Source of the DNA: an uncultured bacterium
GTDB lineage: Bacteria > Krumholzibacteriota > Krumholzibacteriia > LZORAL124-64-63
Reading direction: 5' to 3'
Length of the DNA stretch: 64,000 bases
Assembly: GCA_963727525.1 (NCBI GenBank)
Contig: CAVSGO010000007.1
Coordinates: 1,024,001 to 1,088,000, forward strand
Under the pieces are notes generated by a model. It was not told where the DNA came from and ran no database searches. It saw only the letters and a program-made list of their open reading frames with translations. Numbering within the stretch: position 1 is the stretch's first letter; every line of letters begins with the position of its first letter. Both the position numbers and the translations under genes were made by a program. Shown in pieces: positions 32,801-40,663 of this stretch.

Positions 32801-32828
32801 ATTGTACGTGCACTTCGGCGCGTGTCAA
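32801..32828 (-). promoter_or_regulatory. Sigma70 promoter of Minf_1886-tol-pal cluster
   Basis: TTGACA-N16-TACAAT. Confidence 0.75.
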
Positions 32829-32847: not shown

Positions 32848-33993
32848 TCAACGCTCGCCCCCGGCCCCCAGCACGCGGTCGTACAGATCGATGTACTGTT
32901 TCAAGACGCAGCGCGCCCCGAACGTGGCCACAGCGTCCCGTCGCGCCTCCTCGACGATCTGCCGCCTCAGGGGCTCATCGCGTAGCACGCGCAGGGCAGT
33001 CCCCACCATGCCATCGATGTCCTCGGGATCATGGCGGAACCCGTTGGCGCCGTGGTCGATGAACTCGTCGGTGCCGCCACGGTCCGTGGCGATGACACAC
33101 ACGCCACAGGCCATGGCCTCCAGGGCCACCAGACCGAAGCTCTCGTGCCAGGACGGCAACAGCAGCAGGTCGGCCAGCGGCATGAGCGACTCCAGGTTGT
33201 CCACGGTGCCCAGGCTGTGGACCCGGTCGGCGAGACCGCGCCGGCCGAGTTCGTCCAGCAGCGGACAGAGGTCCGGGCCGTCCCCGACGAGCAAGAGCCG
33301 GCACGGCACCTCGGCCGCCACCCGCGCGAACACGTCGCCCACGGCCGGCACGTTCTTCACTTTGCGGAAATTCGACGCATGCACGATGAGCTTCTCGTTC
33401 GGCGCCGCGAACTGCGCCCGCACGTCGGAGTCGTGGACCGGCGAGTAGCGGCGCGTATCGACGAAATTGGGGATAACGTCGATATGGCGCGTGACCCCGA
33501 AGACACGTGCCGTCTCGCGCGCGAGGAATGCGCTGACCGCCGTCACCGCATCGCTACGGTCGATGAGGAAACGCGTGATGGGAAAGAACGAGGGCTCCTG
33601 CCCCACGAGCGTGATGTCGGTGCCGTGCAGGGTGGTGATCACCTTGAGCCGCTCGGGACCCACCATCTGCTGGGCGAGGAACGCCGCCGCCGCATGCGGG
33701 ATGGCGTAGTGCACGTGCAGGATGTCCAGCTCGTGGCGTTGCGCCACCTCGCTCATCGCCGAGGCGAGGCTCAGGGTATAGGGCGGATAGAGAAACACCG
33801 GGTAGTTCACCACATCCACCTGGTGGTAGAACACATTGGCGCGAAACCGGCGTAGACGCAGCGGGACGCTGCTCGAGATGAAGTGCACGGCGTAGCCGCT
33901 GCGCGCCAGGTTCAGTCCCAGCTCGGTGGCGACGATCCCGCTGCCGCCCTGGCTCGCGTAGCAGGTGATGCCGATGGTGGGCAGGCGGCTCAT
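32848..33993 (-). CDS. bshA: N-acetyl-alpha-D-glucosaminyl L-malate synthase
   Basis: IGITCY..GGSGIVATELG, HVHYAIPHA, TTLHGTDIT, HASNFRKVK, ESFGLVALEAMACG. Confidence 0.95.
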   Translation of the reverse strand: MSRLPTIGITCYASQGGSGIVATELGLNLARSGYAVHFISSSVPLRLRRFRANVFYHQVDVVNYPVFLYPPYTLSLASAMSEVAQRHELDILHVHYAIPHAAAAFLAQQMVGPERLKVITTLHGTDITLVGQEPSFFPITRFLIDRSDAVTAVSAFLARETARVFGVTRHIDVIPNFVDTRRYSPVHDSDVRAQFAAPNEKLIVHASNFRKVKNVPAVGDVFARVAAEVPCRLLLVGDGPDLCPLLDELGRRGLADRVHSLGTVDNLESLMPLADLLLLPSWHESFGLVALEAMACGVCVIATDRGGTDEFIDHGANGFRHDPEDIDGMVGTALRVLRDEPLRRQIVEEARRDAVATFGARCVLKQYIDLYDRVLGAGGER

Positions 33994-34745
33994 GCCCAGC
34001 GCTCCTGCGGCAGGTCGACCAGCACCGGCACGGCCGCACTCCGCAGCGCCTCGCCATATTCCACACCGGCGCGGTGGCCCCACAGCCGTCCGCGCGACTC
34101 GATACGCTGCGAGAAACTCTCGGTATTGATGTACGTCGGGCGGCGGCCGGGAGCGGCGACGAACTGGGAGGCGTAGCAGTTCAGAGCATCGCGCTTGTCC
34201 TGCCACGTCTCCGACACGTCGAAGATCAGTGACGGCACAGCGAACTCAGGACAGGTCTCGAAGACGGCTTCCACACGCCAGGGTTCGTCGTCCGCCGTCG
34301 CGTCCACCGGCGCCATGGGCCACCAGTGCGCCGGGCCGAGCGACGGCCGGTAGGTCGCGAGATGCGCGAGGAAGACAGCCCGCGCCACGAGCGCCGGCGT
34401 CGCGACGTGGTCGGGGTGCCGTACCGGTTCCGGCGCCGTGGCCACGAACCGCGGCCTGAGCCGGCGGACGATCGCCGTCACTGCCGCGACCTGCGCGGGG
34501 TCGGCGGCGGCGATGAAACCGTCCGGCAATGCGAGTTGTACGCGGCCCGTGAGGCCGAGCACCTCCGACGCCCGCTGCGCCTCGCGCCAACGCTCGTCGG
34601 GCGTCGCGTTGGATGCCAGTTCGCCCCGGGTGAGATCGCACACCCACACCTGACGCCCGCGATCGACCAGACGGCGCAGTGTGCCGCCCAGCGCGATCTC
34701 CGCGTCGTCGCTGTGCGGACAGATGCACAGGAGATCGAGGGACAT
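33990..34745 (-). CDS. bshB1: GlcNAc-malate deacetylase (PIG-L family)
   Basis: PHSDDAE, DLTRGE, RHPDH, YASQF, GVEYGE; coupled to bshA. Confidence 0.88.
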   Translation of the reverse strand: MSLDLLCICPHSDDAEIALGGTLRRLVDRGRQVWVCDLTRGELASNATPDERWREAQRASEVLGLTGRVQLALPDGFIAAADPAQVAAVTAIVRRLRPRFVATAPEPVRHPDHVATPALVARAVFLAHLATYRPSLGPAHWWPMAPVDATADDEPWRVEAVFETCPEFAVPSLIFDVSETWQDKRDALNCYASQFVAAPGRRPTYINTESFSQRIESRGRLWGHRAGVEYGEALRSAAVPVLVDLPQERWA

Positions 34746-34762
34746 GCTTCGGCTCCCCTCGC

Positions 34763-36334
34763 TCACGGTTGCGGCACCGCGAGCAGGAATTCGTGCCAGC
34801 GGCCGTCGAGCCCGGCGTCCCAGTGACGACGGCTCGCATGCAGGATGGCCGCGATGAGTTCGTCGCCCCACAGCGCCGCCGCTGCCACTGCGGCGAGCGC
34901 GCGCTCCTGGCGTTCGCCTTCGGGACGCACCCATGCCGGTTGCTCGGCGGCGTGCGCGGCGGCATTGCGCGCCTGCTCCCGTTCGAGCAGTCCGCGGACC
35001 TGGCGCGTCCACCGGCGGCCGAGCTGTTCGGCGATCCTGTCGGCCCGTCCAGGCATGAGGTCGGCTTGCTCCCGCAACGCCGACTGGAGCACCGGCCGCA
35101 CCGCAGCCACCACGCTCTCGGCCAACGGCACCAGCTCGTCACTCCCGGCCGGCGCCTGTACGCGGCCGGCGGTGGACCGCGCCCAGTCCGAGAAACCCGC
35201 GGCACCGGCGGGGCCGAGCTGCGCGAAGAGCCGCGGCATCAGGGGCGCCCGCGGCAGGTCGAGCACCGGATAGCCCCGCGCGAGCTGCGACAGGTAGGCG
35301 ATCTCACCAGGTCCACCCACGACACCGGCGGGACAGAAGAGCCAGTCCTGGACGGCCGAGCGCGCCGCCACGCCCGGGCGCAATCGCTCCGCATCCGGCA
35401 GCGGTCCCACGTGCTCCGCCGGCAGCGGTTGCCTTCGCCCTTCGAGTGCGAGGTAGAGAAAGCGCTCGACGCTGGATTCGGCGAGCGGCGCGCCGTATCC
35501 AGCCGCAGCCAGCTCGGCGCCCGCTTCACGCAACGCCTTGCGATAGGCCGCCCGCCGTTCCCAGAGACGGCGGTAGAACGGTTCCGCTGCGGCATGGAGC
35601 GCGGAATCGTTGCCGGAGACGACGAGCAGATCGCTTCCCCGGAACATCCGCAGCAGTGCCCGGCGTTGCAGGCGCGACCACGACCAGTCGCCGGCCACGG
35701 CGTCGTGCCAGATGCCAGCGAGGTCGCGCGACAGTCCGTGGCGGCCCTCCAGTTCGGCGAGCCAGCGCGCGGCTCCCGGCGCATGCGCCGCCGCGCCGAA
35801 CGTGCCGACCATGGCCGGCGCGCCGCCGGACGCGGACGGCGGCGCCGCGCGCACGAGGACGCCTCGCGCGGGATCATACGCGATGGCATGCAAAGCCTCG
35901 CGCAGATCGTCGTCGTCGTCGCCCGACCAGAACAGCGGCACGGTGTGACGCCCCGCGGCGGTACGCATCTCCGCCAGCACAATCGTGGCCGCAACCTTGT
36001 AGAGAGTGTAGAGCGGTCCGCCGAGAAAGCCCGGCTGCTGGCCCGTCACGACGACATCGGCCGCGCCCGCCACCAGGGCCGCGACCGCGGCCCGGGTCCG
36101 GGTCGCCGCCGCGTCGTCCGGCAGATCGGCGACCAGCTCCTGCAACCATGGTTCGCGCCAGGTGTCACTGGTCCAGATGACACCCGGGGCGCCCGCGGGC
36201 GACTGGAGATCGAAGTACCGCGCCAGTTCCGTCCGCGCCGAACCGACCGCCCCGTCTCCGCGTAACCACGCGCGCAGGAGCAGGGCCATATCGGCGTGGT
36301 CCGCCAGCAGGGATCCGTCCTGAACTCCGATCAC
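34763..36334 (-). CDS. bshC: Bacillithiol cysteine-adding enzyme, divergent
   Basis: VVTGQQPGFLGGPLYTLYK, VPLFW, GPGEIAY..QL, RQER. Confidence 0.85.
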   Translation of the reverse strand: MIGVQDGSLLADHADMALLLRAWLRGDGAVGSARTELARYFDLQSPAGAPGVIWTSDTWREPWLQELVADLPDDAAATRTRAAVAALVAGAADVVVTGQQPGFLGGPLYTLYKVAATIVLAEMRTAAGRHTVPLFWSGDDDDDLREALHAIAYDPARGVLVRAAPPSASGGAPAMVGTFGAAAHAPGAARWLAELEGRHGLSRDLAGIWHDAVAGDWSWSRLQRRALLRMFRGSDLLVVSGNDSALHAAAEPFYRRLWERRAAYRKALREAGAELAAAGYGAPLAESSVERFLYLALEGRRQPLPAEHVGPLPDAERLRPGVAARSAVQDWLFCPAGVVGGPGEIAYLSQLARGYPVLDLPRAPLMPRLFAQLGPAGAAGFSDWARSTAGRVQAPAGSDELVPLAESVVAAVRPVLQSALREQADLMPGRADRIAEQLGRRWTRQVRGLLEREQARNAAAHAAEQPAWVRPEGERQERALAAVAAAALWGDELIAAILHASRRHWDAGLDGRWHEFLLAVPQP

Positions 36335-37110
36335 GGCGTCTCCTTCGCCCGTTCGAACACGAGCAGCCAGCGCGGACTCGTCGGTGCGAGCGGGCCGCCG
36401 TCGTAGTCGCCAGCGGCGGCGACTCTCCTCAACCTCGCAGCATCGGCGAGCGCGTCGAGCTCGTCCAGGCGGAAGAGTTCGACCTCCTCGGCGTACCGCA
36501 ATCCCTCGCGGGGCACGCCGAGCGCGGCGGCAGCCTCGTCGTCACCGCGCACCGTCACTGTCACGTCCTTCACGGCCCGGCGCGGGTCAGCCGCCAGCCG
36601 CCGGTGCTCCCGTACCGTCACCGGTCCATCCTCGCGCACGGTCTCACGCGGGCCGGCGGCAAGCTCGAGCGCCACGCGTTCACTGTTGAGGAAATCGAGG
36701 AACCAGTGACCAGCCGGCGCGAGCACCCGCGCCACGTCGTGCACAACCGCCGCATGCTCGGTAGGCGTCCGGAAGTACCCGAAGGCGGTGAAGAGCGAGA
36801 GCACCGCCGTGCATGAACCCGTGGCGCACGGAATGGCACGCATGTCGCCGCGTACCAGCCGCTGCCCCGGGTCGGCCGCGCGCGCGAGCGCGAGAAGTTG
36901 CGGCGAGAGATCCAGCCCCACCGCCGGGAGCCCGCGTGTAGCGAGCAGCCCGAGGTGGCGCCCCTGCCCGCACCCGAGATCGAGCACCGGTCCCGCGCCC
37001 AGCGGCGCCAGTCGCGGCAGCAGATCGAGGCAGCGCGCCGCCTCGCGCGCATCCCGATGACGGTACAGCCACGGGTAGTGAGCGCCGAACGCCTGCGTGT
37101 ACCAGCTCAC
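36331..37110 (-). CDS. Class I SAM-dependent methyltransferase
   Basis: VLDLGCGQGRH, GLDLS, RGDMR, SLFTAFGYF; GTG start overlapping nadB stop. Confidence 0.9.
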   Translation of the reverse strand: MSWYTQAFGAHYPWLYRHRDAREAARCLDLLPRLAPLGAGPVLDLGCGQGRHLGLLATRGLPAVGLDLSPQLLALARAADPGQRLVRGDMRAIPCATGSCTAVLSLFTAFGYFRTPTEHAAVVHDVARVLAPAGHWFLDFLNSERVALELAAGPRETVREDGPVTVREHRRLAADPRRAVKDVTVTVRGDDEAAAALGVPREGLRYAEEVELFRLDELDALADAARLRRVAAAGDYDGGPLAPTSPRWLLVFERAKETP

Positions 37111-38789
37111 GATGGCGGCTCCACCGCCAGCCGCGGCTCCCACGCCATCTCTCCCTCGACCGGATGGGTGCGGCCCACGACCGTGTCCCACGGCGGACCA
37201 CCATCCTTGGCCGGATAGTCGACCATGGCGTGCAGCCCCCGGCTCTCGTGGCGGGCACGAGCGCAGAGCACGATGAGTTCGCCGAGCAGGGCGATGTTGC
37301 GCAGCTCCACGAGATGGGGCGTCACCTGGAACACCGCGAACTGCCGTTCCACCGTGCGGCGGATGTTGCGCATGCGGCTCAGAGCGATGGCGAGCCGCTC
37401 GTTGTCCCGCACGATACCCACGTAATCCCACATCACACGGCGCACCGTGTCCCAGTCGTGTTCGAGCACCATGACCTCCGGTCCCGTGCTCGCGCGCGCG
37501 AGCGGATCCTGCGGGTGCGGCACCGGCCCATCGGTAGGCACCACGTGCGGCTCGCCGGCGGCGGCCTGCGACGCAGTCTCGGCGAAGTACACGGCCTCGA
37601 GCAGGCTGTTGCTCGCAAGCCGATTGGCCCCGTGCACGCCGGTGCAGGCCGCCTCGCCGATCGCATAGAGACCGGGCAGCGAGCTGCGACCGTCGCCATC
37701 CACCTGCACGCCGCCGCACATGTAGTGCGCCGCCGGCACCACCGGCACCGGTTCGCCGGCGAGGTCGAGGCTGAAGAGTTTGCACGTGGCCACGAGGTGC
37801 GGAAAGCGCTCCTCCACCGTCGCCCGCTCGAGGTGACGCAGGTCGAGGAAGACGCAGTTGTCGCCGCTGAGCTTCATCTCCTGGTCGATGCTGCGGGCCA
37901 CTACGTCGCGCGGCGCCAGTTCGGCAAGGGAATGGTAGCGCGGCATGAAGCGTTCGCCGCGCCGGTTGATGAGGTACGCGCCCTCGCCGCGTACGGCCTC
38001 GCTGATCAGGAAGCTCTTGGCTTCCGGGTGGAAGAGGCAGGTGGGATGGAACTGCACGAACTCGAGGTTGGCCAGCAGCGCGCCCGCGCGGTAGGCCATG
38101 GCGAGTCCGTCCCCCGTCGCGATGTCGGGATTGCTAGTGTAGCTGTAGACCTTGCCGCAGCCGCCGGTGGCAAGCACCACGACGTCGGCGAGATAGGCGC
38201 GGCGATCGGCCGTCTGCTCGTCGAGCACCCAGCAGCCTGCGACTCGCTCGGCCGGTCCCGCGAGGCCCGGCACGTCGGCGACGCGGATGAGATCCACGGC
38301 CAGATGGTTCTCGTCGATGTGGATCTCGCGACGCTCATGGCACGCGCGCAGCAACGACTCCTCGAGCATGTGACCCGTGAGGTCCTTGCTGTGCAGGATG
38401 CGACGGCGCGAGTGGCCGCCCTCCCGTCCCAGCGAGAACGGCGCGCTCGGCCCGTCGCCTTCGCGCGTGAACTCGGCCCCCTGGACGAGGAGCCGCTCGA
38501 TCAGGTGCGGCGCCGCCTCCACCATGGCCCGCACGATCCCCTCGTCGCACAGCCCATCGCCGGCGGTGAGCGTGTCCTGGACGTGCAAATCGAAATCATC
38601 CAGGGGAGAAAGCACGGCCGCGATGCCGCCCTGGGCATAATTCGTGTTGCTCTCGCGCTTCGACTTCTTGGTGACGATGCTCACATCGCCGAATTCTGCC
38701 GCCAGCAGGGCAAATTGCAGTCCGGCGATGCCCGTACCCACGACGAGGAAGCGGCTTCGGCGCGGATCTTCGAGGCGATAGGCAGCCAT
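37107..38789 (-). CDS. nadB: L-aspartate oxidase
   Basis: GTGIAGL, YAQGGIAA, REGGHS, QFHPT, SEAVRGEG, ELAPRDVVAR, AAHYMCGG, HGANRLASNSLLE. Confidence 0.95.
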   Translation of the reverse strand: MAAYRLEDPRRSRFLVVGTGIAGLQFALLAAEFGDVSIVTKKSKRESNTNYAQGGIAAVLSPLDDFDLHVQDTLTAGDGLCDEGIVRAMVEAAPHLIERLLVQGAEFTREGDGPSAPFSLGREGGHSRRRILHSKDLTGHMLEESLLRACHERREIHIDENHLAVDLIRVADVPGLAGPAERVAGCWVLDEQTADRRAYLADVVVLATGGCGKVYSYTSNPDIATGDGLAMAYRAGALLANLEFVQFHPTCLFHPEAKSFLISEAVRGEGAYLINRRGERFMPRYHSLAELAPRDVVARSIDQEMKLSGDNCVFLDLRHLERATVEERFPHLVATCKLFSLDLAGEPVPVVPAAHYMCGGVQVDGDGRSSLPGLYAIGEAACTGVHGANRLASNSLLEAVYFAETASQAAAGEPHVVPTDGPVPHPQDPLARASTGPEVMVLEHDWDTVRRVMWDYVGIVRDNERLAIALSRMRNIRRTVERQFAVFQVTPHLVELRNIALLGELIVLCARARHESRGLHAMVDYPAKDGGPPWDTVVGRTHPVEGEMAWEPRLAVEPPS

Positions 38790-38853
38790 CGTGACTCCCG
38801 GTTAGGGCCGTCCCCACAATAAGCGCGGGTTCCAGGGGCGGGCAACGTCCGGT

Positions 38854-38896
38854 CGGGCATAGAAACTGCTCAAGGTCGCCCCGGATTGAGCGATGC
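38854..38896 (+). promoter_or_regulatory. Candidate alternative-sigma promoter (sigma54-like; weaker sigma28-like overlap)
   Basis: GGGCATAGAAACTGCT gives GG-N10-GC; also TCAAG-N14-AGCGATGC. Confidence 0.35.
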
Positions 38897-38964
38897 AAAC
38901 CGCAGAGTCCGCGTATCGCCAGACGCGGCCCGGAAATCGATCCCCGACCGGAGGGTGTAACGTC

Positions 38965-39564
38965 ATGATCCGCAAGATGGTACGGCTCGCAACCGGCATC
39001 GTGGCCCTGGGCCTGATCCTGGGTGTCGCGGGCTGCAGCGAGGATGGCAACCAGTGGCAGCGCCTGGTGTGCGAGGTGGAGTCGGTCAACAGTGGCATGC
39101 CGCTCGTGTCGGCCTACCTGGATTCGGGCAGCGACAACATCGTCAACACCGACGACGACGTCCTGCCGATCGACTTCGTGTCCGTCACCTTCCACGCGCG
39201 GCCCTACAACGACGTGATCACGCTGCCGGAAGACGGGACGTACAGCTACTTCGATGTCGTGAGCTACGACCTGGTCTGGCACCCGGGTCCCGGGGCTCCC
39301 GCGGCGATGACGGATTTCAACATCCACGACGCGCCTTGCGCTACCCGCATCCCGGTGTACGGCGAGGGCAGCGTCGCCATCCTCGTCGCCGATCGGCAGA
39401 TGAAGGAGCAGCCCTGGTTCATCGCCCTCTACAACGACAACTCGCTGAGCTTCAGCGCCAACGCGGAATTGATCTTCCACGGACACGAGTCGGGCTCCGA
39501 CGAGATCGTGGACGTCCCCGCAGGGCTGCTGGTGACGTTCTTCGGCGTCGTCTCCACCAACTAG
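38965..39564 (+). CDS. Hypothetical lipoprotein
   Basis: Lipobox VAGC; beta-rich mature region; DSGSDNIVNTDDD acidic loop; GGAGG RBS. Confidence 0.8.
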   Translation: MIRKMVRLATGIVALGLILGVAGCSEDGNQWQRLVCEVESVNSGMPLVSAYLDSGSDNIVNTDDDVLPIDFVSVTFHARPYNDVITLPEDGTYSYFDVVSYDLVWHPGPGAPAAMTDFNIHDAPCATRIPVYGEGSVAILVADRQMKEQPWFIALYNDNSLSFSANAELIFHGHESGSDEIVDVPAGLLVTFFGVVSTN

Positions 39565-39580
39565 GCGACGGCCGACGGGT

Positions 39581-40663
39581 CTAGCTCGCCCCCACCTGTG
39601 CGCGCCGGCGCTGCATCACGAATCGTGGCAGCGCCGGCGCGCCGTGCCAGGCGAGGTGGAGGTCCACCACCGCGACGGCGACCTCAGCCGGCCACAGCCC
39701 GCCCAGCTTCACCCAGTCCTTGGCCGTCGTCACCCAGGCCGTCACCCCACGGGCACGGCCCTGGGCGAGGATGCGCGCGAGCGTCCGCACGTCGTACCGC
39801 GCGTGGTCACGGCAGCGTACAGCCAGTCGCGGCGCCGCGTCGAGCAAACCAGCGGCGTGCCGCTCGAAACCTCCGGGCCGCGCCAACCCCGACAGCAGCG
39901 CGACCGGTCCCGACCCCCACGACGCCACGCCAACTGACCGTAGCCGGGCCTCCCGGGCGAATCCGAGCACCGTCACCCCCGGCATGCATGCGCGCAGATC
40001 GTCCGGCCAGGGCCCGGGGCGCTCGAGAAGCCATACGCCGGCCCGCCCGGCCGCCGCTGCGGGTTCACGATAGGGGCCCCACGGAAGTAGCCGGCCGGTA
40101 CGCGGCGTGACCACGTCACCCGCTTCCTCCCAGCGGTCGAGGATCAGGACATCGAGGTGGCGGCCCACGCCCGCGGTCTGGAAGCCGTCGTCCAGCAGGA
40201 CGATCTCCGGCGTCGGGCGAGCGGCCCGCGCGGCGTCCACGCCCTCGGACCGCCGCCGGGCCTGGATCACGCTCCAGCCGTCCGCGGCCAGCCTGGCCAG
40301 GAGGCGGGCCTCGTCGCCGGCCCGGGGGTCGTCCGGGGCCACGCGCAGAGGCCCGTGGGCCGCCCCACCGTGGCCGCGCGTGACGACGGCGCCGCCCAGG
40401 CCCAGATCGGCCAGGTCGCGCATCAGACGCGCCACCACCGGGGTCTTGCCCGTCCCCCCTGCCCGCAGGTTGCCCACCGCCACCACGAGGACCTCCCCCG
40501 GCGGTGGCGTGCGACGCGACGCGCGCACCACCGTGGCTGCCGCTAGCCCGGCGCTGGTCGCCCGGGCCAGAGCCGCTACCACCGGGCCCGGATGGCTGTC
40601 CCAGCGCCTCCAGAGGGCCTCCAGGCGCCGCTCGCCGGCCGGGCGGAGATCAAGCACGTCCAC
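39581..40663 (-). CDS. lpxK: Tetraacyldisaccharide 4'-kinase
   Basis: VGNLRAGGTGKTP, RGHG, GDEA, LDDGFQ, LLPWGPYRE, DHARY, TTAKDWVK. Confidence 0.9.
   Translation of the reverse strand: MDVLDLRPAGERRLEALWRRWDSHPGPVVAALARATSAGLAAATVVRASRRTPPPGEVLVVAVGNLRAGGTGKTPVVARLMRDLADLGLGGAVVTRGHGGAAHGPLRVAPDDPRAGDEARLLARLAADGWSVIQARRRSEGVDAARAARPTPEIVLLDDGFQTAGVGRHLDVLILDRWEEAGDVVTPRTGRLLPWGPYREPAAAAGRAGVWLLERPGPWPDDLRACMPGVTVLGFAREARLRSVGVASWGSGPVALLSGLARPGGFERHAAGLLDAAPRLAVRCRDHARYDVRTLARILAQGRARGVTAWVTTAKDWVKLGGLWPAEVAVAVVDLHLAWHGAPALPRFVMQRRRAQVGAS

Follow-up and report, generated by a model that had tools for sequence, protein, structure and literature searches.

A predicted N-methyl-bacillithiol gene cluster, nmbA-bshC-bshB1-bshA, in an uncultured diderm bacterium

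A stretch of 64,000 nucleotides (nt) from an uncultured bacterium (assembly GCA_963727525.1, contig CAVSGO010000007.1), here called the window, carries a methyltransferase gene beside three genes for the synthesis of bacillithiol (BSH), bshC, bshB1 and bshA. Does this locus encode a complete route to N-methyl-bacillithiol (N-Me-BSH), with the methyltransferase in the role of NmbA (CT1040), the N-methyl-bacillithiol synthase of Chlorobaculum tepidum (Hiras et al. 2018, PMC6282198)? We consider it very probable that nadB-nmbA-bshC-bshB1-bshA forms a co-directional, translationally coupled set whose last four genes make up the complete N-Me-BSH route.

Going by the established functions of these enzyme families (PMC5790435, PMC12719100), BshA would join UDP-GlcNAc and L-malate, BshB1 would take off the acetyl group and BshC would add cysteine to give BSH. 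The methyltransferase, with S-adenosylmethionine (SAM) as donor, would then methylate reduced BSH at the amino group of its cysteine. An original prediction, made on this DNA before the present analysis, had proposed such a one-operon route to a modified thiol, and it is supported by the identities of the genes, the NmbA membership of the methyltransferase and the conserved cluster. Gene overlaps and conservation of the cluster argue for its co-transcription, and the four products would be expected to have the enzymatic activities of their families.

Layout of the locus

The original prediction held that the methyltransferase, bshC, bshB1 and bshA are contiguous, and all four open reading frames (ORFs) were recovered where it placed them, on the minus strand (Table 1). 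Because the window has a G+C content of ~67%, long spurious ORFs are plentiful in it; scores against family models (BshA, BshB1 and BshC, and Pfam for the methyltransferase) identify the four as real genes and not chance ORFs. The junctions, read directly from the DNA, agree exactly with those predicted. GTGA at 36331-36334 contains both the nmbA stop and the bshC start (a 4-nt overlap), ATGA at 33990-33993 likewise both the bshB1 stop and the bshA start, and a 17-nt gap separates bshC from bshB1, in which the purine-rich motif is likely a ribosome-binding site. Moreover, the nmbA start overlaps the nadB stop in another GTGA of 4 nt. The methyltransferase had been described as embedded in the bsh genes; here the linkage stands but the position does not, as the gene heads the other three.

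Table 1. Coordinates of the genes and other features at the locus (positions within the window; aa, amino acids)
Feature	Position	Strand	Description
sigma-70-like promoter match	32801..32828	-	TTGACA-16-TACAAT, 11/12 consensus positions; just past the bshA stop
bshA	32848..33993	-	381 aa, ATG start; N-acetylglucosaminyl-L-malate synthase, glycosyltransferase family 4 (GT4)
bshB1	33990..34745	-	251 aa; GlcNAc-malate deacetylase
bshC/bshB1 spacer	34746..34762	-	17 nt, contains purine-rich GAGGGGAG
bshC	34763..36334	-	523 aa, GTG start; putative cysteine-adding enzyme of BSH synthesis
nmbA	36331..37110	-	259 aa, GTG start at 37110; class I SAM-dependent methyltransferase, NmbA family; predicted bacillithiol cysteine-N-methyltransferase
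nadB (L-aspartate oxidase)	37107..38789	-	560 aa; TIGR00551 552 bits vs cut-off 452.75

Identity of the methyltransferase and the Bsh enzymes

The methyltransferase matches Methyltransf_25 (57.9 bits) and Methyltransf_11 in Pfam. No NCBIfam model names it, the best being the DVU_1556 family at 57.7 bits against a cut-off of 155, and its relatives uniformly carry the public name 'class I SAM-dependent methyltransferase'. Such generic matches and names are what would be expected if the protein were a generic class I enzyme, unrelated to BSH, that stands beside bsh genes by chance. More specific comparisons speak against this. A phmmer search of all chains in the Protein Data Bank (PDB) returned C. 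tepidum NmbA (CtNmbA), whose crystal structure is 9RI2 (Hammerstad et al. 2025, PMC12719100), as the top match at 82.9 bits (E 2.8e-22), with an alignment that spans the full length, cap segments included (residues 3-251 vs 16-258); the runner-up chain, CalS10, scored 62.4 bits. The gap is larger for a profile (A1) of 65 diverse relatives, taken from an exhaustive HMMER search that gave 17028 matches at E<=1e-3 and 158 at E<=1e-30. This profile matches 9RI2 at 241.5 bits (E 7.3e-71) and the next PDB chain at 99.0 bits (E 2.3e-27).

Fifteen columns of A1 are invariant (W3, F8, Y12, Y16, D44, C47, G48, D67, F107, G111, Y112, D139, K181, E208 and R247 of the window protein), and by reading of the printed alignment CtNmbA has the identical residue at all 15. 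Motif I, VLDLGCGQGRH, occupies residues 42-52, and Motifs II and III have their acidic residues in D67 and D89; in A1, all of these columns are either invariant or conserved above 90%. The protein also has the GYF pair which in CtNmbA was assigned to adenine stacking (PMC12719100). An AlphaFold2 (AF2) model (predicted local distance difference test, pLDDT, 96.1) has a Rossmann-like strand-helix pattern, with cap strands at the N terminus and after beta5.

The comparison also holds in reverse. The NmbA-type protein of Paenibacillus nitricinens, a congener of the assayed enzyme of P. polymyxa (PpNmbA), itself matches 9RI2 best among PDB chains (E 1.5e-40) and, as a query in this genome, finds the window methyltransferase first (E 1.2e-31; runner-up 2.3e-12), CtNmbA itself having been compared as a PDB target and not as the query. 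A quick-mode maximum-likelihood tree was built from 81 family members, with five paralogues of this genome, on very long branches, as the outgroup. There the window protein falls in an eight-sequence clade that has 99% support in the Shimodaira-Hasegawa-like approximate likelihood ratio test (SH-aLRT) and includes three proteins labelled Candidatus Krumholzibacteriia, and this clade is nested in a 95% set that also contains Paenibacillaceae proteins. Its closest named relatives come from metagenome-assembled genomes (MAGs) of Candidatus Krumholzibacteria or Krumholzibacteriota, and the best non-self protein is just 68% identical. Taken together, these sequence comparisons make the window methyltransferase a clear relative of NmbA and a member of its family, as the original prediction had supposed. 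That prediction would have been in difficulty had the enzyme been unrelated to NmbA, and the relation was found by PDB, profile and reciprocal searches alike; given this evidence, the new BSH-tailoring methyltransferase that it offered as an alternative is not needed.

Two of the Bsh enzymes score above their NCBIfam equivalog cut-offs, BshA with TIGR03999 (483.6 bits, cut-off 273.7) and BshB1 with TIGR04001 (206.9 bits, cut-off 182.5), the latter also matching PF02585 (PIG-L). Beyond the locus, the genome, which is 96.7% complete with 4.66 Mb in 8 contigs, contains a gene of the bacilliredoxin family (PF06491, 153 bits), and neither PF04262 (glutamate-cysteine ligase, gshA) nor PF02955 (glutathione synthetase, gshB) has a match in it. 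With a bacilliredoxin-family gene present and no match to either glutathione family, the gene content fits N-Me-BSH as the main thiol of the organism, and we infer that it fills that role.

Several results pull the other way and have to be set against an N-Me-BSH route at this locus. Identity between the window methyltransferase and CtNmbA is modest, at ~33-35% (87 identical residues of 249 query residues, counted by eye on the phmmer alignment) and 26% in the Foldseek structural alignment, and lies at the lower edge of the 35-95% identity criterion used for the published NmbA similarity network (PMC12719100). When the AF2 model was searched with Foldseek, 9RI2 came fifth (template modelling score, TM, 0.67/0.75), after 3D2L, PsmD, CypM and SgMT, so that the top places went to other natural-product methyltransferases, as a chance neighbour of the bsh genes might have it. 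The predicted fold does not single out NmbA, and AlphaFold models of NmbA are themselves reported to depart from the crystal structure in precisely the narrow, four-stranded cap (PMC12719100). BshC scores 166.9 bits with TIGR03998 (E 7.7e-49), under the NCBIfam equivalog cut-off of 265.8. Lastly, the YtxJ family has no match in the genome, and the best match to the YpdA family (bacillithiol disulfide reductase), at G000:C5:346057-346845 (-), reaches 147.8 bits, far below its cut-off of 339.9.

In Pfam, BshC matches with its N-terminal domain only, PF10079 (127.9 bits). However, a profile of 32 BshC relatives (A2) matches B. subtilis BshC (4WBD) with E 2.6e-108, positions 10-500 aligning with 12-525, and the motifs TGQQPG...GGPLY..YK and FW..DD.D..E are present in the window protein and invariant in A2. 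Because the A2 profile covers 4WBD over nearly its full length despite the NCBIfam score, the sequence evidence identifies the window protein as a divergent but genuine BshC. Shorter forms of BshC, of ~380-410 aa, occur in other genomes at L034:7714-8937 and L063:7704-8933. Their Pfam match begins at profile position 87-88, such that the start of the Rossmann-like domain is gone and the coiled-coil domain is retained.

Linkage of nmbA to the bsh genes within the phylum and beyond

The conservation of the cluster was examined in 121 genomes of the phylum, probably Krumholzibacteriota (120 sampled genomes and this one), each searched with the four proteins. Matches were found in 85 genomes for the methyltransferase (E<=1e-20), 86 for BshC (E<=1e-15), 88 for BshB1 (E<=1e-15) and 89 for BshA (E<=1e-40). 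At least one of the four genes is present in 90 genomes and all four in 81, and in 75 of these 81 they are contiguous, on one strand and in the order seen in the window. The six genomes lacking a contiguous cluster (G060, G068, G087, G096, G099 and G103) belong with the results that tell against the proposed route; in five of them the genes are split over the contigs of fragmented assemblies, and in G099 bshA is on another contig. The genes bshA, bshB and bshC are all present in 81 of the 85 methyltransferase-positive genomes, and the methyltransferase adjoins bshC in 79/82 genomes having both. Moreover, the methyltransferase and the bsh genes are present or missing jointly across the families of the phylum; in three of these (f4, f7 and f9), most genomes lack all four.

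Four genomes (G032, G065, G100 and G108) contain a contiguous bshC-bshB-bshA with no NmbA-type match at E<=1e-20; the G100 and G108 assemblies are 88% complete and fragmented. Therefore, the phylum may hold both BSH-only and N-Me-BSH lineages. Alongside the short BshC forms stands family f2 of the phylum (genomes G001, G004, G015 and G034), where the interval between the methyltransferase and bshB is just ~1.15 kb.

For other phyla, genome contigs were scanned for relatives of the methyltransferase, and the best 80 of 596 were inspected, their flanks being searched by tblastn with the window proteins; the phylum labels of MAG loci may be wrong. bshC lies directly 3' of the methyltransferase gene in 50 of these 80 loci, and three more end too early to judge. 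The nmbA-bshC pair occurs in at least nine labelled phyla. The full four-gene form was found under the labels Acidobacteriota (6), Aminicenantota, Electryoneota, Chloroflexota (2), Planctomycetota and Fibrobacterota (one), and also in unlabelled or Krumholzibacteriia MAGs. Gemmatimonadota loci have nmbA-bshC only (24/24), and no bsh gene stands beside the NmbA-type gene in 15 of 16 Bacillota-labelled and 6 of 6 Bacteroidota loci; C. tepidum is absent among the best 80 of 596. When bshC starts were chosen by one fixed rule, which prefers an overlapping start wherever there is one, 34 of 45 loci showed a 4-nt overlap between the methyltransferase stop and the bshC start.

The original prediction would have been weakened by a methyltransferase with no link to bsh genes elsewhere, and such linkage was found both in the phylum and in other phyla. 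The adjacency to bshC in nearly all phylum genomes with both genes and across the labelled phyla, together with the joint presence or absence of the genes across families, the specific full-length match to CtNmbA and the reciprocal best match with the P. nitricinens protein, argue against a generic enzyme placed here by chance. We regard that explanation as highly improbable and retain an NmbA-family enzyme serving the BSH pathway.

A search among longer proteins returned P0274, a predicted protein of 941 aa with an N-terminal NmbA-like half and a BshC domain. The NmbA-like part is 32% identical to the window methyltransferase over 98% of the latter, and the Rossmann-like domain of BshC (PF10079) scores 155.6 bits. 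P0274 is the single member of its cluster, from a contig of 8 kb; either NmbA and BshC are genuinely fused in it or two genes were mis-called as one.

This coupling bears on another alternative, namely that the NmbA-family enzyme acts differently here, either on a pathway intermediate or on the activated donor of cysteine, ahead of the BshC step or in the course of it, or to give another product such as a doubly N-methylated thiol. A position immediately 5' of bshC, coupled to it in most loci, would suit such a role, as would the one predicted fusion and the identity to CtNmbA of just about one third. Furthermore, excerpts of a 2018 review describe the BshC reaction as unreconstituted in vitro at that time (PMC5790435), and a by-product that is a secondary amine can be methylated by NmbA in vitro (PMC12719100). 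However, CtNmbA and PpNmbA methylate reduced BSH directly in vitro, whereas glycine, glutathione (GSH) and bacillithiol disulfide (BSSB) are not methylated (PMC12719100). According to excerpts of PMC6282198, C. tepidum never showed N-methyl-cysteine, and BSH accumulated on deletion of nmbA. The sharing of every invariant family column with CtNmbA, and a place in the tree bracketed by lineages whose relatives were validated, also count against a changed activity. A different action is therefore unlikely in our judgement, and methylation of reduced BSH remains the preferred last step.

In the many lineages where their genes are coupled, and fused in one predicted protein, NmbA and BshC could also function together as a single unit, physical or kinetic. 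We hold this to be quite improbable, since B. subtilis and other bacteria produce BSH with a BshC but without NmbA. If true, coupled or fused forms could offer a handle for reconstituting the BshC reaction.

Other arrangements of NmbA-type genes were seen during the scan. A bshA homologue (278 bits) lies immediately 3' of the NmbA-type gene at L076:7001-8817, from a Planctomycetota-labelled MAG, and bshC and bshB were not detected within 7 kb downstream. In P. nitricinens, a metallo-beta-lactamase-fold gene (Lactamase_B and B_lactamase-like_C; L065:6959-8836) comes immediately after the NmbA-type gene, and P0252, a representative protein of 470 aa, has NmbA-type and metallo-beta-lactamase-fold domains fused. 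One guess is that this partner is a thiol-ester hydrolase linked to N-Me-BSH.

Flanking genes, known systems and significance

The gene upstream of nmbA, nadB, had been left out of the cluster as originally drawn. It stands immediately 5' of the methyltransferase gene in eight of nine loci of the closest clade (L007-L013, L016 and L038; the exception is L009) and is thus the habitual upstream neighbour in the lineage of the window. As a member of the thiol pathway it was considered and dropped, being a bona fide L-aspartate oxidase that is kept upstream in the closest clade only; we know of no link between nadB and BSH.

Further upstream are genes for LpxK, a DUF374 protein and LpxB. The order lpxK - small conserved ORF - nadB - nmbA (window 37107-40663) is retained in the closest clade (loci L007-L013), and a lpxK homologue lies ~2 kb upstream of nmbA in many Gemmatimonadota loci as well (among L014-L071), which suggests that the thiol and lipid A genes share an old synteny. 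An ORF of 296 aa at 38596-39486 (-) has no family match and, as listed, overlaps the nadB start by 194 nt; relatives with 30-40% identity occupy the same position in L007, L008, L011 and L012. On the downstream side, the sigma-70-like match of Table 1 is one of two such sites found, where shuffled sequences gave 0.5 expected, and is a consensus match only. It is followed by TolQ-, TonB-C- and TolB-type genes; probably this Tol-Pal-type unit begins there, which would place the operon's 3' boundary at the same point. The original prediction took the host to be a diderm, and this is borne out by the lipid A genes (LpxB, LpxK) and Tol-Pal-type genes that flank the cluster.

How does the locus compare with known systems? 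The window methyltransferase and CtNmbA are both class I SAM methyltransferases of ~260 aa that can be aligned over their full length, with a shared N-terminal W..F..Y..Y.HRD segment, C-terminal SPR motif, GYF pair and Motif I containing a cysteine (VLDxxCGxGRH), and both genomes have bshA, bshB and bshC. They differ in that only about one third of residues are identical, that the activity of the window enzyme is a predicted one, and that the pathway loci of C. tepidum are far apart by number (CT1040, CT1419; PMC6282198), compared with one coupled cluster here. PpNmbA, which methylates BSH in vitro (PMC12719100), has Paenibacillaceae homologues in the same 95% tree set as the window protein; its lineage differs in that the Bacillota-labelled gene mostly has no adjoining bsh gene. 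B. subtilis shares the three Bsh enzyme families and the bshB1-bshA adjacency (PMC5790435). However, its bshA and bshB1 are in one operon with mgsA, and bshC is apart with panE, whereas here nmbA and bshC are joined to bshB1-bshA; excerpts of PMC5790435 mention no nmbA gene for B. subtilis, and the host of the window, by contrast, is a diderm carrying genes for lipid A and Tol-Pal.

NmbA with BshABC is an already published pathway, and this locus is a sound but ordinary further example of it. A RefSeq survey found all four genes in 1765 species of 13 phyla, including 8 Gemmatimonadota; as excerpted, no BSH pathway is given in it for Chloroflexota or Fibrobacterota, and Krumholzibacteriota are not included (PMC12719100). 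There is no operon or gene-neighbourhood wording in the excerpts of PMC6282198 or in those of the main text of PMC12719100 and its two supplements, and the passages drawn on from PMC2922099 (Aravind et al. 2010) are not about BshC neighbourhoods. Our literature search, which lay outside subscription-only literature, returned no paper on the nmbA-bshCBA operon form and none joining Krumholzibacteriota with bacillithiol. What is new here is minor, namely the phylum, the operon form in its wide distribution and one predicted NmbA-BshC fusion.

Knowledge of the pathway itself is unchanged by these findings. Conserved across phyla, the coupling of nmbA to bshC is genomic evidence that independently supports the function published for NmbA, and the compactness of the four-gene cluster would make it a handy cassette for producing N-Me-BSH in a heterologous host. 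For the organisms concerned, a candidate phylum about which little is known, probably Krumholzibacteriota, joins the predicted users of N-Me-BSH, which adds to the picture of BSH-type thiols, and not glutathione, as the redox buffer in many uncultured diderm lineages.

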